From Tabrizicola flagellatus (lineage in GTDB: Bacteria > Pseudomonadota > Alphaproteobacteria > Rhodobacterales > Rhodobacteraceae): 64,000 bases of DNA. The notes below the pieces were generated by a model. That model ran no database searches. It was not told the DNA's origin and worked only from the letters and a program-made list of their open reading frames with translations. How positions within the stretch are numbered: position 1 is the stretch's first letter; each line of letters opens with the position of its first letter. The stretch spans positions 39,589 through 103,588 of the forward strand of contig NZ_JBKBLV010000003.1 of the NCBI RefSeq assembly GCF_046295235.1, written 5' to 3'. Positions 42,714 to 55,251 of the stretch are shown piece by piece. The position numbers were made by a program, and so were the translations under genes.

Positions 42714-42814
42714 CCCCGCATGCAGAAAACGTTTGGCGACACGCGGGGTTCGGGGTCTATTGATCGGCAAGTCAACAAAGAATCCCCGGCATGGGGACCA
42801 GTAGGGAGACGACC

Positions 42815-44410
42815 ATGAACGACAAGGTGAACCAGCTGGACTGGATGGTGGCTCAGGCGAAGGCGGGCCGGATGAGCCGGCGCGAGTTCGTCGGACGGAC
42901 GACGGCCCTGGGCGTGTCGGCGGGGCTTGCCTCGGCGCTGTTCGGCAAGGCGGTGCAGGCCCAGGCCAAGAAGGGCGGCGTGCTGCGCGCCGGCATGCAG
43001 GGCGGGGAATCGACGAACAGCCTCGACCCGGCGCTGGCCGCGTCCGAGGTGCCCTTCGCGGTCAACATGACCTGGGGCGAGATGCTGGTGGACGTGGCCC
43101 CGGACGGGTCGATCGACTACCGGATCGCCGAGGAGATCAGCTCGAACGCCGATGCGACGGAGTGGAAGTTCAAGATCCGCCAGGGGGTCGAGTTCCATGA
43201 CGGCAAGACGGTGACGGCCGAGGACGTGGTGGCCACGCTGAAGCGGCACACCGACGAGAAGAGCCAGTCGGGCGCGCTGGGCATCGTGCAGGGCATCGCC
43301 GAGATGGTGGCGGAAGGCGACATGGTGACGCTGAAGCTGGCGTCGGGCAACGCCGACCTGCCCTATCTGATGGCGGACTATCACCTGGTGATCCAGCCGG
43401 GCGGCGGCATCGACAACCCGGCCGCCGGGATCGGCGCGGGCGCCTACAAGGTGGCGGTGAACGAGCCCGGCGTCCGCCATGTGTTCGAGCGGCATCCGAA
43501 CTACTGGGATGCGGCCAATGGCGCCCATGCCGATCAGGTCGAGATCATCGTGATCAACGACAACACGGCGCGGACGGCGGCCTTGCAGTCGGGCCAGATC
43601 CACATGATGAACCGGGTCGATCCGAAGATCGTGGCGCTTCTGAAGGGTGCGCCGGGGATCACGATCGAGCATGCTCCGGGCCGGGGGCACTATGTGTTCA
43701 TCATGCATGTGGACAAGCCGCCCTTCGACAACAACGACCTGCGGATGGCGCTGAAGCTGGCGATCAACCGCAAGGAGCAGGTGGAGAAGATCCTCGGCGG
43801 GCTGGGGTCGGTCGGGAACGACTTCCCGATCAACGCCGCCTATCCGCTGTTCGACGACACGATCCCGCAGCGCGAATACGATGCGGCGGCGGCGGCGGAC
43901 TACTACAAGAAGTCCGGCCATGACGGCAGCCCGATCATCCTGCGCACTGCTCCGGGCGCCTTCCCCGGCGCGGTGGATGCGGCGAACCTCTTCGCGGCCT
44001 CGGCCAACGCGGCGGGCATCCCCCTGCAGGTGCAGCTGGAACCCGACGACGGCTACTGGTCGAACGTCTGGAACGTGCAGCCCTTCTGCGCCAGCTACTG
44101 GGGCGGGCGGCCGGTGCAGGACCAGATGTATTCGACCGCCTACCTGTCCACCGCGGAATGGAATGACACCAAGTTCAGGAACGCCAAGTTCGACGAGCTT
44201 CTGGTTGCGGCCCGGGCCGAGCTGGACGAGGGCAAGCGCAAGGCCATGTATTCGGAAATGGCCCATATCCTGCGCGACGAGGGCGGCCTGATCCTGCCGA
44301 TGTTCAACGACTGGGTCGAGGCACGGCGCGAGGAAGTCGCAGGCTGGCAGCCGGACCCGAACGGGGAACTGATGAACGGCAAGGCGCTGATCAAGTGCTG
44401 GCTGGCCTGA
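42815..44410 (+). CDS. Peptide/nickel ABC transporter substrate-binding protein (Tat-exported)
   Basis: SRREFV twin-arginine motif, family 5 SBP (IRQGVEFHDG). Alternative start at 42791. Confidence 0.92.
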   Translation: MNDKVNQLDWMVAQAKAGRMSRREFVGRTTALGVSAGLASALFGKAVQAQAKKGGVLRAGMQGGESTNSLDPALAASEVPFAVNMTWGEMLVDVAPDGSIDYRIAEEISSNADATEWKFKIRQGVEFHDGKTVTAEDVVATLKRHTDEKSQSGALGIVQGIAEMVAEGDMVTLKLASGNADLPYLMADYHLVIQPGGGIDNPAAGIGAGAYKVAVNEPGVRHVFERHPNYWDAANGAHADQVEIIVINDNTARTAALQSGQIHMMNRVDPKIVALLKGAPGITIEHAPGRGHYVFIMHVDKPPFDNNDLRMALKLAINRKEQVEKILGGLGSVGNDFPINAAYPLFDDTIPQREYDAAAAADYYKKSGHDGSPIILRTAPGAFPGAVDAANLFAASANAAGIPLQVQLEPDDGYWSNVWNVQPFCASYWGGRPVQDQMYSTAYLSTAEWNDTKFRNAKFDELLVAARAELDEGKRKAMYSEMAHILRDEGGLILPMFNDWVEARREEVAGWQPDPNGELMNGKALIKCWLA

Positions 44411-44420
44411 GGCCCGGTCC

Positions 44421-45377
44421 GTGCATCCGATCATGAAACTGGTGGTCCAGCGCATCGCGCTGGGCCTCCTCCTGCTCCTCGCTGTCTCGGCGGTGATCTT
44501 CCTGGGCGTCGAGGCGCTTCCGGGCGACACCGCGCAACAGATCCTGGGCCAGTCGGCCACGCCGCAGGCGCTTGAGAACCTGCGCGAGAAGCTGGGGCTG
44601 AACGAGCCGCCGCTCACGCGCTATTTCACCTGGCTGGGCGGGGTCCTGACCGGGGATCTGGGCAAGTCGCTGACCAATGGCGTCGATATCGCCCAGGCGA
44701 TCGGGCAGCGGCTGGGCAACACGCTGTTCCTGGCCGGATGCGCCGCCGTGATCGCCGTGCCGCTGGCGATCCTTCTGGGCCTGATCGCCGCGCGCTATGC
44801 CGGGCGCTGGCCCGACAAGCTGATCTCGGCCGTCACGCTGACCACGATCAGCCTGCCCGAATTCGTCGCGGCCTATTTCGTCATCTTCCTTCTCACCCAG
44901 CTTTTCCCCTTGTTCCAGCCGGTCGCCATGGTCTTTCCGGGCATGAGCTTCTGGGCCAAGCTGCACGCGATCGCCCTGCCGGTCATCGTGCTGGTGCTGG
45001 TCGTCCTTGCCCACATGATGCGGATGACCCGGGCGGCGATCCTGAACGTGATGCAGTCGGCCTATATCGAGACCGCCGAACTCAAAGGCCTGTCGCCGAT
45101 GACCATCATCTGGAAGCACGCCTTCCCGAACGCCATCGCGCCGGTAGTCAGCGTGGTCATGCTGAACCTGGCCTACCTCGTCGTCGGCGTGGTCGTGGTC
45201 GAGGTCGTCTTCGGCTACAACGCGCTGGGCCAATACCTCGTCGATCACGTCACCAAGCGCGACCTGCCGGTGGTGCAGGCCGTGGGGCTGATCTTCGCCG
45301 CCGTCTACATCTTCCTGAACATGCTGGCCGACATCATCGGCATCCTTGCCAACCCGCGCCTGAGGCACCCGAAATGA
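44421..45377 (+). CDS. Peptide ABC transporter permease (DppB-like)
   Basis: GDLGKS, AYIETAELKGL, KHAFPN, RDLPVVQ. Start GTG 44421 or ATG 44433. Confidence 0.92.
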   Translation: MHPIMKLVVQRIALGLLLLLAVSAVIFLGVEALPGDTAQQILGQSATPQALENLREKLGLNEPPLTRYFTWLGGVLTGDLGKSLTNGVDIAQAIGQRLGNTLFLAGCAAVIAVPLAILLGLIAARYAGRWPDKLISAVTLTTISLPEFVAAYFVIFLLTQLFPLFQPVAMVFPGMSFWAKLHAIALPVIVLVLVVLAHMMRMTRAAILNVMQSAYIETAELKGLSPMTIIWKHAFPNAIAPVVSVVMLNLAYLVVGVVVVEVVFGYNALGQYLVDHVTKRDLPVVQAVGLIFAAVYIFLNMLADIIGILANPRLRHPK

Positions 45378-46189
45378 GGATGCCGCTTTCCGCCCTGATC
45401 GGCCTGGTCCTGACCGGCACCTTCCTCTTCATCGCGATCTTCGCGCAGTGGATCGCGCCCTATCCGCTGGACGACAGTTCCGGCGGCCAGTGGGAAGGCT
45501 TCTCGTCCGCGCACTGGCTGGGCACCGACACCATCGGCCGCGATATCCTGAGCCGGCTGATCTATGGCGCGCAGGTCACGATCTTCGTGGCGCTGGCCTC
45601 GTCGCTTCTGGCCTTCGCGCTGGGGGCCTTCCTCGGCTTTCTCGCCGCGGTCAAGGGCGGCTGGATCGACCAGCTTCTGTCGCGGCTGGTCGATCTGATG
45701 ATGGCCATCCCCTCGCTGATCGTGGCGCTGGTCATGCTGTCGGTCCTGCCCCTGAACCTGACCGTGCTGATCCTGGTCATGGGCATCCTCGATTCGACCC
45801 GCGTCTTCCGGCTGAGCCGCGCGGTCGCGGTGGACATCGCGGTGATGGACTATGTCGAGGCCGCGCGGCTGCGGGGCGAAAAGGGCGGCTGGATCATCTT
45901 CCGCGAGATCCTGCCCAATGCGCTGTCGCCGCTGGTGGCCGAGTTCGGGTTGCGCTTCATCTTCGCGGTCCTGTTCATCTCGACGCTCTCGTTCCTCGGC
46001 CTCGGCATCCAGCCGCCGCTGGCGGACTGGGGCGGCATGGTGAAGGAGAACAAGGACGGCCTTATCTACGGCAAGTCGGCGGCGCTGTTGCCCGCGGCCG
46101 CCATCGCCGCGCTCGCGATCAGCGTGAACCTGGTCGCGGACTGGATCCTGACCCGGACCTCCAGCCTCAAGGGAGGGCGCGGTGGCTGA
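45374..46189 (+). CDS. Peptide ABC transporter permease (DppC-like)
   Basis: HWLGTDTIGRDILSRLIYG, LSFLGLGIQPP. Confidence 0.92.
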   Translation: MRMPLSALIGLVLTGTFLFIAIFAQWIAPYPLDDSSGGQWEGFSSAHWLGTDTIGRDILSRLIYGAQVTIFVALASSLLAFALGAFLGFLAAVKGGWIDQLLSRLVDLMMAIPSLIVALVMLSVLPLNLTVLILVMGILDSTRVFRLSRAVAVDIAVMDYVEAARLRGEKGGWIIFREILPNALSPLVAEFGLRFIFAVLFISTLSFLGLGIQPPLADWGGMVKENKDGLIYGKSAALLPAAAIAALAISVNLVADWILTRTSSLKGGRGG

Positions 46190-47816
46190 TCCCCTGTTGC
46201 AGATCAAGGGCCTGGTGATCGAGGCGACCTCCTATCCTCCGGGAGAGCCGCCGAAGACCGTGACGCTGGTGCATGGCGTGGACCTGACGCTGGAGAGGGG
46301 CCGCGTGCTGGGGCTGATCGGCGAATCCGGGGCGGGCAAGTCCACCATCGGCCTGTCGGCCATGGCCTACGGGCGGGGCGGCGTCCGGCTGACGGGGGGC
46401 ACGATCCACCTGAACGGGCGCGAGATCCGGCTGGCGGATGCGCGCAGCCTGCGGCGCCTGCGCGGGCGCGAGGTGACCTATGTCTCGCAATCGGCCGCCG
46501 CCAGCTTCAACCCGGCCAAGCAGATCATGGAGCAGGTGATCGAGACCTGCCTGAGCCATGGACTGTGCAGCAAGGCCGAGGCCGAGGCCCGGGCGCGGGG
46601 GCTGTTCCGCAAGCTCGGCCTGCCGAACCCGGACACGATCGGCAACCGCTATCCGCACCAGGTCTCGGGCGGGCAGTTGCAGCGCTGCATGACGGCGATG
46701 GCGCTGTGCCCGAAGCCGGACCTGGTGATCTTCGACGAGCCGACGACCGCGCTGGACGTGACGACGCAGATCGACGTGCTGGCCGCGATCAAGGAGGCGA
46801 TCCGGGACACCGGGGTGGCGGCCTTGTACATCACGCATGACCTTGCGGTGGTGGCGCAGGTCGCCGACGAGATCATGGTGCTGCGCCATGGCCGGATGGT
46901 TGAACTGGGCGAGACCGGCCAGATCATCCACCGGCCGGTGCAGGACTACACGAAGGCGCTGGTTTCGGTCAGGGGCCTCGACCATGCCGAAAAGCCCCCT
47001 GCCCCGCCGGTCTTGCAGGTGCAGAATGTAACGGCGCGTTACCGGGGCACGAATTTCGACGTGCTGAAGAACGTGTCGATCGATCTGCCGGCGGGTCAGA
47101 CCCTGGCGGTGGTGGGGGAGTCGGGGTCGGGGAAATCGACGCTGGCGCGGGCGATCACCGGGCTGTTGCCGCCGTCCCAGGGCCGGATCACCTTTGCCGG
47201 GCGCGAGCTGTCGGCGGATCTGGCCGGGAGGACGAAGGACGACCTGCGCGAGATCCAGATGATCTACCAGATGGCCGACACCGCGATGAACCCGCGGCAG
47301 ACGGTGGGCACGATCATCGGCCGGCCGCTGGAGTTCTACTTCGGCATGAAGGGGGCGGAACGGGACAGGCGGGTGCAGGAGCTTCTGGACCAGATCGAGA
47401 TGGGCAAGGGCTTTGCCGACCGCTATCCGGCGGAACTGTCTGGGGGGCAGAAACAGCGGGTCTGCATCGCGCGGTCGCTGGCGGCGAAGCCGAAGCTCAT
47501 CATCTGCGACGAGGTGACGAGCGCGCTGGATCCGCTGGTGGCGGACGGGATCCTGAAGCTGCTTCTGGCGCTGCAGGCGCAGGAGCATGTCGCCTACCTG
47601 TTCATCACCCATGACCTGGCGACGGTGAAGGCGATTTCCGACAAGATCGCGGTGATGTTCAAGGGCGCGGTGGTGCGCTACGGGCAGAAGTCCGACGTGC
47701 TGACGCCGCCGTTCGACGATTATACTGATCTCCTCCTGTCCTCGGTGCCCGAGATGGAGCTGGGCTGGCTGGAGCAGGTGATCGCGCACCGCAAGATGGA
47801 GAGCGCAGGGAACTGA
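46182..47816 (+). CDS. Peptide ABC transporter, fused double ATPase
   Basis: Two Walker A motifs (GESGAGKS, GESGSGKS), SGGQ signatures, DEPT and DEVT. Confidence 0.93.
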   Translation: MADPLLQIKGLVIEATSYPPGEPPKTVTLVHGVDLTLERGRVLGLIGESGAGKSTIGLSAMAYGRGGVRLTGGTIHLNGREIRLADARSLRRLRGREVTYVSQSAAASFNPAKQIMEQVIETCLSHGLCSKAEAEARARGLFRKLGLPNPDTIGNRYPHQVSGGQLQRCMTAMALCPKPDLVIFDEPTTALDVTTQIDVLAAIKEAIRDTGVAALYITHDLAVVAQVADEIMVLRHGRMVELGETGQIIHRPVQDYTKALVSVRGLDHAEKPPAPPVLQVQNVTARYRGTNFDVLKNVSIDLPAGQTLAVVGESGSGKSTLARAITGLLPPSQGRITFAGRELSADLAGRTKDDLREIQMIYQMADTAMNPRQTVGTIIGRPLEFYFGMKGAERDRRVQELLDQIEMGKGFADRYPAELSGGQKQRVCIARSLAAKPKLIICDEVTSALDPLVADGILKLLLALQAQEHVAYLFITHDLATVKAISDKIAVMFKGAVVRYGQKSDVLTPPFDDYTDLLLSSVPEMELGWLEQVIAHRKMESAGN

Positions 47817-47823
47817 ACCGCCG

Positions 47824-47890
47824 CTCGTCGTTGGACTGCGTCCCTCCTCGCTGGGGGCCTCCCGACGAGAAGCCGAAGGCGCACGAGGAG
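47824..47890. repeat. Four-heptamer palindromic repeat, copy E
   Basis: CTCGTCG-N13-CTCCTCG-N12-CGACGAG-N14-CGAGGAG. Confidence 0.8.
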
Positions 47891-47897
47891 GCTTTTC

Positions 47898-48731
47898 TTG
47901 ACCAAATTGCTGCTCATTATCCTGGACGGGGTGCCTTACCGCAACTGGCGGCGGCTGTTCGGCAACCTGGAAGGCTGGGTCGAACAGGGCGAGGCGCGGG
48001 TGCGGCAGATGCGCTCGGTGCTGCCCTCGACCTCAGCCTCGTGCTACGCCTCGATCCACACCGGCCTGCCGCCGCAGGTGCACCGGATCTGGGACAATGC
48101 CGACATCCGGCGGCTGGAGTTTCCCGATGTCTTCGGCGCGTTGACGAAGGCGGGTCTTAAGACCGGGGCGGTGACGCACAGCTACTGGTCGGAGTTCTTC
48201 AACCGCGCGCCCTTCGACGTGGTGCGCGACATCGAATACGACGAACCCGAAGGGCCCATCACTCATGGCCGGTTCCACACCATGCACGGTTATGGGCACG
48301 CGAACCAGATGACGCCCTCGGACTACGACCTCTTCGGCACGCTGACGCGCCTCTGCGAGGTCAAGGGCATCGACTACGGCATCCTGCACACCTGCACGCT
48401 GGACAGCATGGGGCACCGCTTCTTCCACGACTGCGAGGAGATGGACCACGCCTGCGGCCATCTCGATGCGGTGCTGGCCCCCTTCATCCACCGCTGGCGG
48501 CAGGCGGGATACGAGGTGATCGTGACCGCCGACCACGGCCAGGACGCGCGCGGGCACCATGGCGGGACGGGCGAGGAGCAGCGCGACTTCGCCTTCTACT
48601 ATTTCGGCACAAGCCCGCTGCCGCCCGAGGATCAGGTGCTGGACCAGCTGGCGCTGGCGCCGTCGATCCTGACGCGGATGGGGGTGCCGGTGCCCGCGAC
48701 GATGACGGCCGCGCCTTTCCTGACCGGCTGA
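47898..48731 (+). CDS. Alkaline phosphatase / nucleotide pyrophosphatase superfamily protein
   Basis: IILDG, PSTSASCY, DSMGH, VTADHG metal-binding motifs. TTG start. Confidence 0.85.
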   Translation: MTKLLLIILDGVPYRNWRRLFGNLEGWVEQGEARVRQMRSVLPSTSASCYASIHTGLPPQVHRIWDNADIRRLEFPDVFGALTKAGLKTGAVTHSYWSEFFNRAPFDVVRDIEYDEPEGPITHGRFHTMHGYGHANQMTPSDYDLFGTLTRLCEVKGIDYGILHTCTLDSMGHRFFHDCEEMDHACGHLDAVLAPFIHRWRQAGYEVIVTADHGQDARGHHGGTGEEQRDFAFYYFGTSPLPPEDQVLDQLALAPSILTRMGVPVPATMTAAPFLTG

Positions 48732-48748: not shown

Positions 48749-49054
48749 CTATTTCGCGGCCGGTCCGAGCGTCAACCGGACTTCGGACGCGCAGGCCATG
48801 TAGCTGGCGCGGGCGGAATGGCCGTTGCCCGCAGAGGACCGGCCGGTCCGCTCTTCGGCGGCCACCCGGCGCAGCGCGAGGCAGGTCTGGACCTTGTCGG
48901 TGTAATCGGCCCTGAGGGCCTGGCATTCGGCCGAGGCCGAGCCGGTGGCGCCGGTCAGGGGGCAGTTTTCCGGCATCCGGGCGGCGGTCTCGGCCAGAAG
49001 GGGTGTGGCGCCTGCCGCGAACAGGGCAAGCAGCGACGCGATGAGGGTTTTCAT
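48749..49054 (-). CDS. Small secreted four-Cys protein
   Basis: MKTLIASLLALFAAGATPLLA signal peptide, 4 Cys, GGAGA RBS. Confidence 0.65.
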   Translation of the reverse strand: MKTLIASLLALFAAGATPLLAETAARMPENCPLTGATGSASAECQALRADYTDKVQTCLALRRVAAEERTGRSSAGNGHSARASYMACASEVRLTLGPAAK

Positions 49055-49297
49055 CCCGATCTCCGTTCAAATGGATCTGTCTGAAAATGCGCTTCCCCTT
49101 CCCCGGATCGCGGCGAAGGACAGGGTCTGGTCTAGGGCATCAGCGTGATTTTCGCGTGACACCAGCGCCAAATCGGTAGCGGGCCGGGCAACCCTGGCGC
49201 CGGAACGCTGGATTAGGGTGGATTTCCCGATCGTCGTCTGTTGAAAGGCCGCGTGTCTCTGTGCATCGTTAACCTCCGTAATCCCGAACGGTATCGC

Positions 49298-51316
49298 ATG
49301 TTTCGCTTCCAGGTTGATCTCCTCGGTGCCTGCCGGGTCGCGCGTGTCGCGACCGGAGAGGAACTGGCGTTCCGGACGCGGAAGACGCGGCTGCTTCTTG
49401 GCCTTCTCCTGCTGTCGCCCGGCCAAAGGATGAACCGCGAACAGCTTGCCTCGCTCCTCTGGGACCCCGCGCCCGAATCGCTGGCGCGTTCCAGCCTGCG
49501 GCAGGCGCTGCGCGAGCTGAAGGAAGTGCTGGGACCGGAGAACGAGGACGTGGTCGAGGCCGACCGCTTTTCCGTCGGTCTGAAGGCTCAGGCCTTCGAC
49601 CTGGACGTGCGCCGGTTCCGCGAGCTGATCGCGACGGCGGTGCATGACCAGAACGCGCTCCTGTCGGCTGCGGCACTGTGGCAGGGAGAGCTTTTCGGCC
49701 CGGCCCAGCCCAGCGCGCCGGTCTTCGAGGCCTGGTTGCAGATCGAACGGTCGCAGCTGCGGTCGGTCCTGACCTCGGCCCTGACCGACCAGCTGGAAAA
49801 GCTGATCGCAGCCAATGCCTTCACCGATACACGCATCGCCGAGGAATTGGTGCGGGTGGAACCCAGTCACGAACTGGCGCACCAGTTCATCATGCGGTTC
49901 CACGCCCAGCGCGGCGACCAGTCGGCGGCCTTGCGGCAATACGCGCTTTTGCAACAGGCGCTGGCCGAGGAACTGGACAGCGAGCCGAGCGAGGCCTCGA
50001 ATGCGCTGCTGGTCGCGATCAAGAGCGGCGAGGTCTCGTTGCAACGTCCGGCCACGGCGCCGGTGGCACCGGCCGCGCCCCTGACGCGCAGCGGCCCGCC
50101 GCGGATCACCATCCGCCCGCCGCTGACCCGCTACACCGACAACAGCAAGGACTATCTAGGCGAGGGCTTTGCTTTCCTGGCCAAGTCCTGCCTGTCACGG
50201 TTCCGCTGCTGGATCGTCATCCCCTGGCCATCGAGCGGCTTCGACTCGACCACCGCTGTGGACTTCACCGCCGTCGGCCAGGTGATCGACGCCGATTTCG
50301 CAGTGGACTGCGTGCTGGACTGGCGCACGGGCAGCGGCAAGCTGTTCGTCACCCTGATCGACTGCCGAGACGGCAGCGAGGTCTGGTCCGAGCTTTACCC
50401 GGTGGCCGAGCACGAGTTGCAGGAGGTCAGCTCCTCCGTCGCGGGCGCGGTGGCGGCGAACCTGGCCAGCCAGGTGAACCACATCACCCTGTTGCGCCAC
50501 GCGCGGTCCACGCCGGGCAATCCGGTGGCCTATGACCTGTGGCTGAAGGGACACCAGTTGTCGCGGCTCTGGTCGGCCGAGGCGGATGCGCAGGCCGAGG
50601 CTCTGTTCCTGAAGGCGATCGAGCTGGATCCGGGGCTGGCCGGGAGCCACGCGAGCCTGGCGCAGGTCCTGAGCACGCGCTGCATGGTCCGGCCGGGCTA
50701 TCCCAACCGCAAGGCCGATTGCGCCGCGGCCTTCAAGCACGCGCGCGAGGCCATCGCACTCGACCCCTACGATCCGCGCTGCCACATCAGCATGGCCTGG
50801 AACTGGGCCATCGCGCGGTCGCCGGAACGGGCCAATTCGCATTTCCGGCTGGCGGTGGACATGAACCCGCACGATGCCGAGACGCTGATCGCGGCGGCGA
50901 GCGGGCTGGGCTTCCTCGGCCATGTCGATCTGGCGAAGGACCTTGCCCAGCAGGCCCTGCGGCTGAACCCGATCTATCCGGAATATTACATCGCCTATCT
51001 GGCCGGCATCCACTTCATGGCGGGCGACCACGAGGCGACAATCGCCACGGTCGAGAAATGCCCCGATGGCTTTCCGGACCTCGGGGTCTGGGCGGTGGCA
51101 TCCTATGCGCATCTCGGCCGGGCAGAAGAGGCGGCGCGCGCCTACGGAACCTTCCGCCGGATCGCGACGCAGATGTGGGAGGGCGGCTCTGCCCCGACCG
51201 AGGAAGAGCTGGAGGCCTGGGTGCTGGACACTCTGCCGATCAACTGGCCCGAGGGCCGGCTGGCCCTGCAGAAGGGCATAAGGCTGGCCCGGGCCATGGC
51301 GGTAGAGGCCGCCTGA
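49298..51316 (+). CDS. SARP-type activator: winged HTH-BTAD, central domain and TPR repeats
   Basis: LGLLLLSPGQRMNREQLASLLW..ARSSLRQAL..LK, LWQGELF, EPSHELAH..IMR..ALRQY, TPRs (AIELDPGLA, AIALDPYD). ATG at 49298. Confidence 0.88.
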   Translation: MFRFQVDLLGACRVARVATGEELAFRTRKTRLLLGLLLLSPGQRMNREQLASLLWDPAPESLARSSLRQALRELKEVLGPENEDVVEADRFSVGLKAQAFDLDVRRFRELIATAVHDQNALLSAAALWQGELFGPAQPSAPVFEAWLQIERSQLRSVLTSALTDQLEKLIAANAFTDTRIAEELVRVEPSHELAHQFIMRFHAQRGDQSAALRQYALLQQALAEELDSEPSEASNALLVAIKSGEVSLQRPATAPVAPAAPLTRSGPPRITIRPPLTRYTDNSKDYLGEGFAFLAKSCLSRFRCWIVIPWPSSGFDSTTAVDFTAVGQVIDADFAVDCVLDWRTGSGKLFVTLIDCRDGSEVWSELYPVAEHELQEVSSSVAGAVAANLASQVNHITLLRHARSTPGNPVAYDLWLKGHQLSRLWSAEADAQAEALFLKAIELDPGLAGSHASLAQVLSTRCMVRPGYPNRKADCAAAFKHAREAIALDPYDPRCHISMAWNWAIARSPERANSHFRLAVDMNPHDAETLIAAASGLGFLGHVDLAKDLAQQALRLNPIYPEYYIAYLAGIHFMAGDHEATIATVEKCPDGFPDLGVWAVASYAHLGRAEEAARAYGTFRRIATQMWEGGSAPTEEELEAWVLDTLPINWPEGRLALQKGIRLARAMAVEAA

Positions 51317-51334
51317 GCCGGGGCCGAGGCCCGG
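51317..51334. terminator. GC-rich hairpin between convergent genes
   Basis: GCCGGGCC-GA-GGCCCGGC perfect inverted repeat. No U-tract. Confidence 0.45.
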
Positions 51335-51360
51335 CCCCGGACCCGCCTATCAGCGTAACT

Positions 51361-51741
51361 TCAGCGGCAGTGCCGCATGAAATAGCGTGCGAGCAGCACC
51401 TTGAACCGGGTCGTCTTGCCGTTGCCGTAGGACGGTTCGTCCACCACGTCGGGCACGGTCTTCAGCACGTCCGCCGAGGGGATGCGGACATGCATCCGGT
51501 TCGGCGTGTCATAGACCGGCACGATCTGCACGCTGTCGGGGATCTCGCCGTTCGGGCCGGCGCCGGGACCGTCGTAGCGGTAGCCGTTGGCATGCAGCCA
51601 GCCGCGCGTGTCGTCGTTGAACTTCTTCCATTCCGAATTCGGCGTGTCCTTGAACACGCTTTTCGCAACTCGCAGGATCGCCTCGCCGGTCTGTTCCTGG
51701 TCGGCGATCGAATTGTTCTTGAGATTGAAGAACCCCACCAT
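51361..51741 (-). CDS. NHLP-leader-like protein, candidate RiPP precursor
   Basis: IPDSVQIVPVYDTPNRMHVRIP resembles the NHLP/nitrile hydratase alpha segment. C-terminus YFMRHCR. GGGAGA RBS. Confidence 0.65.
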   Translation of the reverse strand: MVGFFNLKNNSIADQEQTGEAILRVAKSVFKDTPNSEWKKFNDDTRGWLHANGYRYDGPGAGPNGEIPDSVQIVPVYDTPNRMHVRIPSADVLKTVPDVVDEPSYGNGKTTRFKVLLARYFMRHCR

Positions 51742-51873
51742 TCCGCTGTCTCTCCCTGTGTCCTGGCTGTTTCCGCCCTTGCTGTCGGACCACTATCGGG
51801 CCGGTTCGTGATGCCAGCGTGAAATGCGCCGGCAGCGTCCGATTCCGTCCTTGATCCTGTCCGTCATCCTGCC

Positions 51874-52944
51874 TTGAATACGCGCATGAAGCAAAATCCG
51901 GCCGAGATGATCGCCAAGATGGCGCGCGCCCTGGGCGAGGATTTCCACCTCATGGCCCTGGACGCACCCGAGGCACCGCTGTTCCTGGCCGTCGCCCTGC
52001 CGACGGAAGAGGGGGTGACGGGGTTGAAGCCGCGTCTGCCGGCGGGACGGGGGCTGACGCCGCAGCAGGCGATGCTGGCGGCGGGGGCCGAGGCGCTGGA
52101 GCTGCGGGCAAGCCTGGCGCAGCACCACCTCCCGGACCTGCGCACCCTGCCGCGGCGCGACGGGATCGCCATGGTCGCGGCGACCGATCTGGTCAGCGGC
52201 GAGACGGTCGAGGTGCCGGCGCAGGAGGTCTATCTCGACTGCGCGGCGGTCCTGGGCGAGCCCCTGCGCCAGGATGCCGATTCCACCGGCTGCGCGGTGG
52301 GGCCCGACCGCGACAGCGCCTTGGCGCGGGGCCTGTGGGAATGTGTGGAACGCGATGCGGTGGCGCTGTGGTGGCACGGTCGCCGGCCCGGCGGGGCGGT
52401 GGCGACCGAGATCATCGATGCGCACCAGCCGAGGCTCTTCTGGTGGCTGCACCAGCGCGCCCGCGAGACCCGGCTGATCGAGGTGACCAGCGACATCGGC
52501 CTGCCGGTGGTGGTGGCGGTGGCCGCCGATCCGGACGGGCGGAGGGTTGCCATGGGCTCGGCCGCGCGGCCGGTGCTGGCGGATGCGGCACTCGCCGCGG
52601 TGACCGAGATGGTGCAGACCGAGGTCAGCCTCGACCATGCGCGCGAGGCGGGCGACCCGGAGGCCGCCGCCTGGCTGGCCGCGGCCTCGCTGGCCGATCA
52701 GCCGCAGTTCCGTCCGGGGCCGGAACGGGCCACGCCGCCGCTGGAGATGGCCGGGCTGCTGGAACGGCTGGGCGGGCTGGGCCAGCGGGCGCTGGGGGTC
52801 GAGATGACCCTGCCGGGCGACCCGCTCCCCTCGGTGCGGGTCCTGGTGCCCGGGCTTTGCGCGATGCGGGGCCGGACGCAGTGCCCGCGCTTTGCCCGGC
52901 TTTGTCCCGACCTGCCGCCCCCGACCCTGCCCGAACCCTTCTGA
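51874..52944 (+). CDS. Stand-alone YcaO-family ATP-dependent peptide-modifying enzyme
   Basis: GRGLT..A...A.EALE, STGCAVG, ECVERDA, AVTEMVQ, Pro-rich C-terminus PPPTLPEPF. Start uncertain: TTG 51874, ATG 51886 or ATG 51907. Confidence 0.9.
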   Translation: MNTRMKQNPAEMIAKMARALGEDFHLMALDAPEAPLFLAVALPTEEGVTGLKPRLPAGRGLTPQQAMLAAGAEALELRASLAQHHLPDLRTLPRRDGIAMVAATDLVSGETVEVPAQEVYLDCAAVLGEPLRQDADSTGCAVGPDRDSALARGLWECVERDAVALWWHGRRPGGAVATEIIDAHQPRLFWWLHQRARETRLIEVTSDIGLPVVVAVAADPDGRRVAMGSAARPVLADAALAAVTEMVQTEVSLDHAREAGDPEAAAWLAAASLADQPQFRPGPERATPPLEMAGLLERLGGLGQRALGVEMTLPGDPLPSVRVLVPGLCAMRGRTQCPRFARLCPDLPPPTLPEPF

Positions 52945-52957
52945 CCGCGAGGCCGCC

Positions 52958-54625
52958 ATGCCGCCGATCTCGACCCCGCACAGCCTGTTCGGTCCGGCAC
53001 CCGCAGCGCCGAGGGCCGAAGCGGCGGGGGCCTCTCAGTCGGGCTACTGCTATCTGTTCCCGGATCTGGCCCAGCGGGCCGATGTCGGCTGCTTTCGCGG
53101 CACCACTCCGGCCGAGACCTTCCGGCGGCTCAGGGCCTTCGAGAAGGACAGCCGCACCGCCCTGACCACGCCGCAGGTTCTGCCGATGCGGCTGGCGCCG
53201 GTCTACACCTACTTCGGACAGTTCGTGAACCACGACATCTCGGCCCCGGTGGGCGATGTGGTCACGCGGCCCGCTCCGCCCGAGGGCACCGGCGTGATCG
53301 ACGCCGGGCTGCCGCCCGGGCTGGACCGGGTCCACCGGGCCTCGCCCAGGGTGATCCTGGCGAATTTCGTCAACGAACAGGCCGAGCCCCTGGCGCTGGA
53401 CAGCCTGTACGGCGACGGGCCGGACAGCGCCGACCCGGGGATCCGGGCGCTTTATGCCACGGACGGCAAGCGGTTCCGGCTGGGCAGGACCAGGCGCGAG
53501 CCGCCGGAATTCTTTGAGGAAAAGGGCCTGAAGCCCGCGCGCATCCATCACGACTGGGACGCGCCCGACATCCTGCGCCGGGACGGGCAGCCGCTGATCG
53601 CCGACCGGCGGAACGACGAGAACCTGATCGTCAGCCAGCTGCACCTGGCGCTGATGCTGGTCCACAACAAGGCCGTCGCCGCGCTGGAAGGCGAGGCCCC
53701 GGATGCGGCGACCTGTTTCGCCCGCGCCCGGCAGCTGGTCACGCTGCATTACCACTGGCTGATCCTGCACGATTTCCTGACGAACCTCCTGTCGCCTGCC
53801 ACTCTGGCGACGCCCTTCGCCAACCGGGCGCAGAAGCTGCCCGGCCCGCGGCTGGTACCCCTGGAATTCACCACTGCCGCATTTCGCTTTGGCCATTCCA
53901 TGGTCGGGGCCAGCTATGACTTCAACCGCAACTTCGGCCACGGCGGGCGGATCGACCGCCGGGGGGCCAAGCTGCAGGACCTGTTCGACTTCACCACCCA
54001 TCGCAACATGGGCCAGCCGGGCATGGCCGAGACGCTGCAACTGCCCGACCACTGGGTGATCGACTGGAACCGGATGACCCGGACGCCGAAGGGCGCCACC
54101 GGGGCCGAGCGGATCGACCTGACCTTCGCGCCGGGGATGCTGAGCGCGATGGGCACCTCCGAGATCGCCGTGCACGGGTCGATCCTGTTCCGCAACCTGA
54201 TGCGCGGCTTCCAGCGCCGGATCGCCTTTGGCCAGGTGCTGGCCGAGGCCTGCGGGCTGGAGGCGCTGGACGAGAACCAGCTGCGCGACGCGCTGCCGGA
54301 AAGCGCGCCGGGCATGCTGGGGCTGCGCGAGCTGGCCGAGGAGCTGGGCATGCTGGCCGAGACCCCGGCCTGGCTGTATGTCCTGGCCGAGGCGCGGCAC
54401 CATGGCGCGGGCGAGCGGCTGGGTCCGGTCGCCAGCGAGATCATCGCCGACACGATCATCGGCCTGATGCGCCACATGCCGCAGTCGATCCTGAACCATC
54501 AGGGCGGCGGTTGGCATCCGAGACTGAGCCCGCTCAAGGGCCCAGGCAAACGGGCGCTGACCTCGCTGCGATCCTTCCTGCGCTTTGCCGTGCAGGATTC
54601 CCACATGGATGTCGCGCCGGCGTGA
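52958..54625 (+). CDS. Animal-type heme peroxidase (peroxidase-cyclooxygenase superfamily)
   Basis: YTYFGQFVNHD (distal Gln/His), RRNDEN (distal Arg/Glu), AFRFGHSM (proximal His), TPAWLYVLAEA, LGPV. Confidence 0.9.
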   Translation: MPPISTPHSLFGPAPAAPRAEAAGASQSGYCYLFPDLAQRADVGCFRGTTPAETFRRLRAFEKDSRTALTTPQVLPMRLAPVYTYFGQFVNHDISAPVGDVVTRPAPPEGTGVIDAGLPPGLDRVHRASPRVILANFVNEQAEPLALDSLYGDGPDSADPGIRALYATDGKRFRLGRTRREPPEFFEEKGLKPARIHHDWDAPDILRRDGQPLIADRRNDENLIVSQLHLALMLVHNKAVAALEGEAPDAATCFARARQLVTLHYHWLILHDFLTNLLSPATLATPFANRAQKLPGPRLVPLEFTTAAFRFGHSMVGASYDFNRNFGHGGRIDRRGAKLQDLFDFTTHRNMGQPGMAETLQLPDHWVIDWNRMTRTPKGATGAERIDLTFAPGMLSAMGTSEIAVHGSILFRNLMRGFQRRIAFGQVLAEACGLEALDENQLRDALPESAPGMLGLRELAEELGMLAETPAWLYVLAEARHHGAGERLGPVASEIIADTIIGLMRHMPQSILNHQGGGWHPRLSPLKGPGKRALTSLRSFLRFAVQDSHMDVAPA

Positions 54626-54762
54626 TCGGCCCGGCAACGGGCTGGACAGAGGCAAGGTTTCGCTTCATAGACGCGCTCGTCGGGCGAGGTGCGCCGCGCC
54701 GGTCCCGGCCAGCTACGCAACGAAGATGCGCCGGTAACGGCCGAGCAGAGACGCCTTCGCCC

Positions 54763-55251
54763 ATGACCCCTGACCCGATCCCGTCACACCCGCGGTCGCC
54801 CGCCCTGGCCCGCCGTTTGGCCCTGGTCCTGATCCTGCCGCTGGGGGCCTGCGCCGACGCAACCAGCACCATGCAGCTTTACCCGCTGTCGGGCGAGATC
54901 GCGGATGCCGATCCGACCCTGGTCATCAAGGCGGTGGCGAAGAATACCAACAGCACCTCCGGCCCCCTGACCTTCCGCCTGCCCAAGCGCGGCAAGTGCA
55001 CCGGCACCTGGACCTCGCTGACCCCGCGGGTGGTGTCGAACTCGCAGGGGATGGCGCTGACGCTGAAGAAGACCGGGGGCGAGGTCGGCACCAAGCGCGA
55101 GACCGTGGCCGGGGTGAACAACGGCGAGATCTATGCCGTCTGCGACGACGGCACCCGGGTGCAGGGCACCTTCGTCATCGGGTCGGGCACGGCCAGCGGC
55201 ACGGGCCAGGCCAGCGACACCAACGGCAACGTCTACAAGCTTCTGTTCTGA
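54763..55251 (+). CDS. Putative lipoprotein
   Basis: Lipobox LGAC after a hydrophobic stretch, Gly/Thr-rich beta-type mature part. Confidence 0.7.
   Translation: MTPDPIPSHPRSPALARRLALVLILPLGACADATSTMQLYPLSGEIADADPTLVIKAVAKNTNSTSGPLTFRLPKRGKCTGTWTSLTPRVVSNSQGMALTLKKTGGEVGTKRETVAGVNNGEIYAVCDDGTRVQGTFVIGSGTASGTGQASDTNGNVYKLLF

Follow-up and report, generated by a model that had tools for sequence, protein, structure and literature searches.

YcaO enzymes are known to act together with E1/RRE proteins or TfuA, or on their own, the last arrangement being exemplified by bottromycin and amidine formation, and stand-alone YcaOs often require partner proteins. In the bottromycin pathway, the stand-alone YcaOs BotC and BotCD are followed by a haem enzyme, BotCYP, which oxidises a C-terminal thiazoline derived from a near-terminal Cys. 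In the current study, a 64,000 nt stretch of DNA from Tabrizicola flagellatus (designated here as the window, whose positions are used throughout) was analysed with respect to a cassette in which a stand-alone YcaO gene is followed by a gene for a haem peroxidase, both being accompanied by genes for a 126-aa protein and for a regulator of the SARP (Streptomyces antibiotic regulatory protein) type. The cassette was found to be real and conserved, and apparently represents an undescribed form of YcaO-dependent post-translational modification. A preceding interpretation of the DNA (the sequence-only reading) knew of no characterised class that pairs a YcaO with a peroxidase-cyclooxygenase-family enzyme; in agreement with this, no description of a YcaO paired with this peroxidase family was encountered in the literature searched, which covered few subscription journals.

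The core of the cassette is made up of genes encoding the SARP-type regulator (49298-51316, forward strand), the 126-aa small protein, which belongs to an unannotated family (51361-51741, reverse strand, divergent from the YcaO gene), the YcaO enzyme (51886-52944, forward strand, ~352 aa) and the haem peroxidase (52958-54625, forward strand, 555 aa). The YcaO ORF opens at a TTG codon at 51874, while the start conserved in homologues is the ATG at 51886 (MKQ...), and the peroxidase gene begins 13 nt past the YcaO stop codon. The sequence-only reading had placed this block between a transporter operon and aroB, and every gene that it listed was found at its coordinates. Furthermore, its assignments of the SARP/BTAD-TPR regulator, the YcaO and the peroxidase were each borne out by a Pfam match above cut-off (BTAD, PF02624 and PF03098, respectively).

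Conservation of the cassette was assessed through a scan with a peroxidase alignment of 185,579 species, represented by one genome each, followed by tblastn of the cassette proteins against each locus kept; locus counts rest on the best 78 loci. The SARP (+), small (-), YcaO (+) and peroxidase (+) genes were observed in constant order and at near-constant spacing in ~43 species genomes, mostly of Rhodobacterales and a few of Hyphomicrobiales, with close relatives of the window proteins occurring in Tabrizicola and related Rhodobacteraceae/Paracoccaceae. Wherever the contig extends far enough, peroxidases that are at least 37% identical are adjoined by the other three genes, with the exception of one decayed locus (L051). 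Two distant members of the small-protein family (48-49% identity), located on long contigs, are also found in the arrangement peroxidase-YcaO / small / SARP, here among unrelated flanking genes. Across 35 complete loci, the percentages of identity between each of the four proteins and its window copy correlate with Spearman coefficients of 0.83-0.94, values that are inflated by shared ancestry. Since the flanks differ and divergence is correlated across loci, these comparisons indicate that the four core genes are a single inherited module rather than a chance arrangement. The four-gene set put forward by the sequence-only reading is thus co-inherited, and its members do co-occur in other genomes.

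The distribution of the cassette is patchy, as it was found in five of 401 sampled genomes of the family (one per genus), and on these genome comparisons it looks like an accessory module that is probably mobile. Conversely, the lipoprotein gene downstream of the peroxidase gene (54763-55251, forward strand, lipobox LPLGAC), which the sequence-only reading had counted among the components of the system, is conserved only in the ~17 loci of a syntenic, closely related Tabrizicola-type clade and is not preceded by a regulatory box of the type described below; it was consequently rejected as a core member. Two loci from metagenome-assembled genomes (MAGs) were observed to be irregular. In the decayed locus L051 (4697-8125), from a Pseudorhodobacter MAG, an intact SARP gene is accompanied by a small gene cut to ~66 codons, the YcaO gene is gone and the peroxidase match begins at residue 133, its 5' end being lost, a pattern that resembles an internal deletion. 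In the MAG locus L031 (778-2303 and 6192-6908), the amino-acid permease gene is broken up into two ORFs and the YcaO match does not begin until residue 116, which could be due to an assembly error or to incipient decay of the cassette.

The YcaO protein was shown to consist of the YcaO domain alone (PF02624, E-value 2e-38, 132.9 bits versus a cut-off of 25.7) and to be the only YcaO encoded in the host genome (3.64 Mb, 96.4% complete). Its best NCBIfam model was SagD (TIGR03604, 4.8e-32), although its score of 111.3 bits is below the cut-off of 219.25, while the thioamide-type model TIGR03266 matched more weakly (2e-15). Among solved structures, LynD, TruD and MusD came nearest through their YcaO domains (1.8e-14 to 4e-11), and the thioamide-type MJ1094 was a much weaker match in the structural database, indicative of an enzyme of the azoline type rather than one forming thioamides. 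In a comparison of three sequences, 43-64% identical to that of the window, the motifs ExxE (E73/E76), DS(T/N)GCA, E156xxE159-R-D and E245xxQ248xE250 (TEMxQTE) are invariant, as is the C-terminal EP[FY]. We take the acidic motifs to be the ATP/Mg2+ site, an assignment made on general knowledge rather than on a structure-based alignment.

Genome-wide searches yielded no match to TfuA (PF07812) and none to the E1-like cyclodehydratase partner (TIGR03882), while the best match to SagB dehydrogenase, located on another contig, scored 26 bits, the cut-off being 78. The YcaO, described as stand-alone in the sequence-only reading, is thus stand-alone with regard to these partners at the scale of the genome as well. 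In comparison with the cyanobactin/thiazole-oxazole-modified microcin (TOMM) enzymes (LynD, TruD, MusD and SagD), the window YcaO shares the presumed ATP/Mg motifs and a Pro-containing C-terminus, but it falls below the SagD cut-off, lacks an E1-like/RRE domain in either fused or separate form and is encoded in a genome without SagB above cut-off. In addition, TOMM cores are variable and rich in Cys, Ser and Thr, whereas the candidate substrate in the window carries a single Cys in an invariant tail.

The peroxidase was assigned to PF03098 (1.5e-10, 40.8 bits versus a cut-off of 25), and its profile was found to match the lactoperoxidase entry 8s6c, Dictyostelium peroxinectin A (6erc) and eosinophil peroxidase. 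This similarity is limited to ~110 residues around the haem site, and a plain phmmer search of the PDB with the peroxidase returned no match. Within the site, the distal YFGQFVNHD (GQFxxHD), the catalytic Arg with its neighbouring Glu in ADRRNDEN and the proximal FRFGHS do not vary, and each can be aligned with its counterpart in lactoperoxidase, peroxinectin and eosinophil peroxidase. No apparent signal peptide is present, suggesting a cytoplasmic location for the peroxidase, as for the YcaO and the small protein. The enzyme is hence best described as a predicted cytoplasmic member of the peroxidase-cyclooxygenase (animal haem peroxidase) superfamily, and both it and the YcaO look catalytically intact, judged on their motifs. 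With the short bacterial and protist peroxidases (8s6c; Dictyostelium PoxA, 6erc) it has in common the distal Gln-His-Asp, the catalytic Arg and Glu and the proximal His (FRFGHS), while differing from them in its predicted cytoplasmic location and in its close translational coupling to a YcaO. Peroxidase homologues of at most 36% identity, from Actinomycetota and Chloroflexota, were not accompanied by the other three genes and had no conserved neighbours; the neighbourhoods of these homologues were accordingly discarded as a clue to function. Such solitary relatives (L055-L086, from 31 to 36-37% identity) are widespread in Chloroflexota as well as in Actinomycetota, including Actinoplanes and Pseudonocardiales.

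The small protein has 118 homologous clusters at 90% identity, every one of which is unnamed or 'hypothetical', and it matches no Pfam or NCBIfam family. A profile search of 1.84 billion cluster representatives gave 28 matches, of which ~23 are genuine clusters (50% identity); the long multi-repeat proteins P0134, P0139 and P0140 were dismissed on inspection as low-complexity or repeat artefacts. Every full-length genuine member recovered in this search terminates in A-x-Y-F-x-R-x-C-R, and the N-terminal domain was never seen with another tail. In the window the tail reads LLARYFMR-x-CR, and across loci [LFM][LM]A[RKH]YF[MIT]R-x-CR, with position 124 free (K/H/R/Q/S) and the sole Cys always penultimate. 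In the alignments, this C-terminal tail is the most invariant stretch of the protein.

Structure prediction using AlphaFold2, based on a 62-sequence alignment, showed a compact domain with a mean predicted local distance difference test (pLDDT) score of 89.5 and a predicted template modelling score of 0.82. The helix spanning residues 109-121 (pLDDT 93-95) is on par with the rest of the domain, while the last residues drop to 67. A Foldseek search of the PDB with this model found no nitrile hydratase, its best match having an E-value of 4.2, and the family profile matched no PDB sequence; the fold is thus confidently predicted and, on this model, novel. The sequence-only reading had labelled the protein a precursor of the nitrile hydratase leader peptide (NHLP) type, yet none of the 62 aligned members matched the NHLP models (NCBIfam, including TIGR03793) at E<=10. 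Given that hidden Markov model, PDB profile and Foldseek searches were all negative, kinship with NHLP or nitrile hydratase was rejected, and the label does not fit a confidently folded protein lacking a PDB match.

A long (~100 aa) conserved N-terminal region, a short C-terminal segment and an adjacent modifying enzyme are nevertheless features shared with NHLP/proteusin precursors (TIGR03793), as is a superficially similar V-P-V-x-D-T-x-x-x-H-V motif. Conversely, the tail of the window protein is invariant rather than hypervariable, no Gly-Gly cleavage site is present in the protein, which only has a conserved Y-G ahead of a linker that varies, and no C39 peptidase-ABC exporter was found among the conserved neighbours of the cassette. 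In view of the compact fold, the domain that is never re-tailed and the tail that never varies, the small protein resembles a dedicated carrier or substrate, rather than a leader followed by a variable core.

Among described systems, bottromycin is the closest functional analogue of what is proposed here, as its YcaOs work without E1/RRE or TfuA and a haem enzyme is involved. The bottromycin haem enzyme is, however, a P450 that acts after removal of the follower peptide, as opposed to a member of the peroxidase-cyclooxygenase family, and the bottromycin substrate is a short peptide, as opposed to a folded 126-aa protein with an invariant Arg after the Cys. The cassette also lacks the hydrolase, methyltransferase and radical SAM set of bottromycin. 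By sequence comparison, membership of the TOMM/SagBCD, TfuA-YcaO and NHLP classes each fails on at least one defining feature, while the individual proteins do belong to the YcaO, peroxidase-cyclooxygenase and SARP superfamilies.

The regulator was found to comprise an OmpR-like winged helix-turn-helix (wHTH), a BTAD (1.1e-15, 58.8 bits versus a cut-off of 22.1), a middle domain and a TPR region (TPR_17, 1.7e-6). Its Trans_reg_C match (2.1e-4, 21.7 bits) is below the cut-off of 26.2, yet lies at the expected N-terminal position. No ATPase domain was detected, and weak NCBIfam matches were obtained to AfsR and BagI/FevR. With AfsR-type SARP-TPR activators it shares the order wHTH, BTAD and C-terminal TPR, along with putative target repeats that are 11 bp apart, the proximal one ~8 bp from the -10; it differs in being alphaproteobacterial, in lacking the NOD/ATPase, in a wHTH below the Pfam cut-off and in its (T/A)TCACG repeat, compared with the TCGAG-type repeat. 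The mean identity (loci L009-L054) is 74% for the SARP (minimum 49%), 63% for the YcaO, 63% for the small protein and 56% for the peroxidase, and the divergence of the SARP tracks that of the small protein most closely (rho 0.92). A pathway regulator that evolves more slowly than its accompanying enzymes is unusual.

SARP-activated promoters carry direct repeats spaced by 11 or 22 bp, the 3' copy being located ~8 bp from the -10 element (PMC10936776). A direct repeat, CGTGAW-N5-CGTGAA on the forward strand, with an 11-nt period, was identified in the spacer between the small and YcaO genes of the window and of all 42 related loci, and its layout in each of the latter agrees with that of SARP-activated promoters. 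On the coding strand of the small gene, this main box (51807-51823, reverse strand) takes the form TTCACG-N5-ATCACG (TTTCACG-CTGGC-ATCACG in the window). It is followed by a -10-like hexamer (51792-51797, reverse strand; consensus AATAGT, GATAGT in the window), as defined by an anchored alignment of 43 loci, at 8-9 nt from the proximal repeat (9 nt if counted from ATCACG, and 8 nt if the repeat is taken as ATCACGA). The predicted 5' untranslated region of the small gene is ~45 nt in length and carries a Shine-Dalgarno-like GGGAGAG 8-9 nt ahead of the ATG. The main box is accordingly a putative SARP operator of the small gene, and the link between SARP and cassette suggested by the sequence-only reading gains from the conservation of these repeats across the 42 related loci. 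Two exact matches to the box were found in the 3.64-Mb genome, the second of which (contig C11) is located within the 3' end of a cold-shock protein (csp) gene and was taken as a chance occurrence. Two copies of the box were observed in a lengthened small/YcaO spacer of L054 (5684-5786), a MAG labelled Bradyrhizobiaceae.

Further boxes suggest a small regulon. A second box in the window (49144-49160, reverse strand, i.e. the coding strand of the neighbouring gene sec101), GTCACG-N5-ATCACG with one mismatch, followed after 8 nt by CTAGAC, is located between sec101 and the SARP gene, and is equally placed and oriented in L009, L025, L027, L029, L030, L026, L034, L036, L037 and L044. The sec101 gene (48749-49054, reverse strand) is an ORF for a 101-aa protein with a signal peptide and four Cys. 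Sixteen loci have a homologue at most 7 kb from the cassette, invariably divergent from the genes on the SARP side, and 11 of them show a correctly oriented box ~85-125 nt upstream of it. Four Cys are invariant in the family alignment and a His is near-invariant. The AlphaFold2 model is a helical hairpin of moderate confidence (pLDDT 76.6); in the absence of a Pfam match or a significant PDB fold match, this model was not used to assign a function. On these gene-neighbourhood data, sec101 would be an accessory member of the regulon rather than a core gene. Elsewhere, in ~13 of 43 loci, the SARP gene immediately follows an EamA gene of the same strand, which is itself preceded by an AA_permease_2 gene in eight loci. 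Boxes of the opposite orientation stand ahead of the AA_permease_2-EamA-SARP operon in six loci (L026, L034-L037 and L042) and ahead of an EamA-SARP operon in L029. Every box points to the gene that it precedes.

None of the boxes is aimed at the ycaO-peroxidase operon, ahead of which a different, promoter-like pair was recognised by eye from cross-genome conservation (51850-51879, forward strand). This pair, CTTGAT-N18-TTGAAT (TCCAAT in most loci), ends 6 nt (5-7 nt in most loci) before the ATG, and no Shine-Dalgarno sequence was seen by eye in positions 51850-51888 of the window or in 40-odd intergenic sequences. Since the pair nearly abuts the ATG and a Shine-Dalgarno sequence is lacking, the ycaO-peroxidase mRNA is probably leaderless. 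When the region was scanned generically for sigma-70 promoters and terminators, no promoter was called; the promoter elements described here derive from cross-genome conservation.

Taken together, these observations are most readily reconciled with a scheme in which the small protein serves as a dedicated carrier whose exposed C-terminal tail is modified by a stand-alone YcaO of the azoline type and by a cytoplasmic haem peroxidase, which we consider probable, though well short of secure; confidence in the specific chemistry is much lower. The SARP-TPR regulator would bind the paired repeats, which lie one helical turn apart and would replace the -35 of the small-gene promoter, and would thereby switch on the 126-aa protein; through the similar boxes it may also turn on sec101 and, in other genomes, the amino-acid-permease-EamA-SARP operon. 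The small protein would fold, leaving its last five residues, M-R-x-C-R, to protrude flexibly from the C-terminal helix. The YcaO could then activate the backbone amide between residue 124 and Cys125 with ATP, giving a thiazoline, a step that fits in that only the carbonyl-giving residue 124 varies, the YcaO is nearest to thiazoline formers and the Cys is single. Subsequently, the peroxidase, predicted to be co-transcribed with the YcaO, would oxidise the thiazoline to a thiazole, replacing the absent flavin mononucleotide-dependent dehydrogenase, or alternatively would generate a Tyr120 radical that couples to the Cys125 sulfur as a cross-link. The thiazole route is ranked slightly above the cross-link, because Tyr120 and Phe121 sit in a predicted packed helix and their invariance may thus be structural. 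Of the two-enzyme system resembling ribosomally made and post-translationally modified peptide (RiPP) pathways that the sequence-only reading envisaged, the conserved four-gene set, the stand-alone YcaO and the invariant tail stand, while the NHLP leader and the lipoprotein do not.

Several points weigh against this scheme. The action of the enzymes on the small protein is deduced from genomic association, and the same applies to the small protein as substrate, to the residue modified and to the role of the product, all of which are put forward here as presumptive. A folded 126-aa protein with an invariant 'core' is unlike most RiPP precursors, and the neighbour comparison revealed neither a protease nor a peptide-moving exporter conserved in the cassette. 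There is, moreover, no RRE/E1-like domain to account for substrate recognition, and a cytoplasmic peroxidase would need a source of H2O2. Finally, the boxes are sequence patterns, SARP binding to them being putative, and since the main box faces the small gene rather than the enzyme operon, co-regulation of enzymes and substrate does not follow.

The invariance of the tail, together with a carrier domain that is never reused with a different one, would also be expected if the small protein served as the scaffold for a small molecule, following the logic of pearlins and pyrroloquinoline quinone. The C-terminal Cys-Arg or R-x-C-R would in that case be made into an amino-acid-like metabolite, to be released, exported by EamA (a drug/metabolite transporter) and perhaps recycled via the amino-acid permease. 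The EamA gene just upstream of the SARP gene in ~13 of 43 loci, the permease gene preceding it in eight, with correctly oriented boxes in six, and the general knowledge that these transporter families move small molecules, not 14-kDa proteins, are all consistent with this possibility. However, the cassette has no conserved protease or hydrolase by which a metabolite could be released, no amino-acid-adding PEARL-type enzyme is present, and the clade of the window (~17 loci) carries neither EamA nor permease beside the cassette. We therefore regard a scaffold-borne metabolite as unlikely.

The slow divergence of the SARP, the most conserved protein of the cassette, and its close tracking of the small protein point in another direction, namely that the tail, unmodified or oxidised by the peroxidase with H2O2, is a ligand of the SARP TPR. 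The cassette would then constitute a redox- or peptide-sensing feedback switch over sec101 and transporters, and not a biosynthetic pathway. TPR domains commonly bind C-terminal peptides (general knowledge), a box driving the small gene would yield a feed-forward loop, and the further boxes before sec101 and the transporter genes mark a small regulon of the kind that such a circuit would control. On the other hand, an ATP-dependent YcaO is left without a role, binding of the tail to the TPR is conjecture and the divergence correlations are inflated by common ancestry, making a purely signalling function decidedly improbable.

Least probable of all is that the small protein acts as an accessory partner, a recruiter or chaperone replacing E1/RRE, for enzymes whose true substrate is encoded elsewhere or is a small molecule: a confidently folded small protein, a YcaO without its own recognition domain and the frequent need of stand-alone YcaOs for partner proteins would suit such a role, but the cassette contains no further conserved small ORF, invariance is highest at the very C-terminus of the protein, where its single Cys is found, as is typical of a modification site, and the small gene is predicted to be SARP-induced while the enzyme operon has a separate putative promoter.

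With regard to the remaining features of the locus, the window has a G+C content of ~68%, and Pfam and NCBIfam searches identified an Opp/Dpp-type ABC operon and a phosphodiesterase gene on the left flank of the cassette, and aroB-aroK and a XerD-type recombinase gene on the right. The left ABC operon (42791-48731) encodes SBP_bac_5, permeases and a double ATPase with oligo_HPY, followed by a type I phosphodiesterase/PglZ-like gene. Its synteny is confined to a close clade, so that a functional connection with the cassette would be conjectural. A GC-rich hairpin (51318-51345, no strand assigned) was observed between the convergent SARP and small genes, with an RNAfold value of -25.7 kcal/mol for positions 51311-51365. 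It is a possible bidirectional terminator, although a U tract is missing and the terminator scan made no call there.

The predicted pairing of a YcaO with a peroxidase on a folded R-x-C-R carrier would add an enzyme partnership, and probably a new post-translational chemistry, to those described for YcaO enzymes. It would also provide bacterial 'animal-type' haem peroxidases, the roles of which are mostly obscure, with a defined physiological substrate, while the SARP-type promoter logic, best known from actinomycetes, would be extended to Alphaproteobacteria. The proposal is directly testable, since it involves three genes and a regulator with a recognisable operator that are found in cultured strains (e.g. 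Tabrizicola flagellatus SYSU G03088, T. thermarum YIM 73036, Rhodobacter calidifons M37P and Tabrizicola sp. M-4). A more far-reaching possibility, which we hold to be doubtful, is that the cassette makes an unprecedented product, either through peroxidase-dependent modification of the tail (a thiazole or Tyr-Cys-type cross-link) or as an amino-acid-like small molecule derived from the C-terminal Cys-Arg, that feeds back on the SARP TPR. If true, the product or modified tail would govern a regulon of a secreted disulfide protein and amino-acid and drug/metabolite transporters, and would represent a new class of YcaO chemistry with a built-in signalling loop in Alphaproteobacteria.

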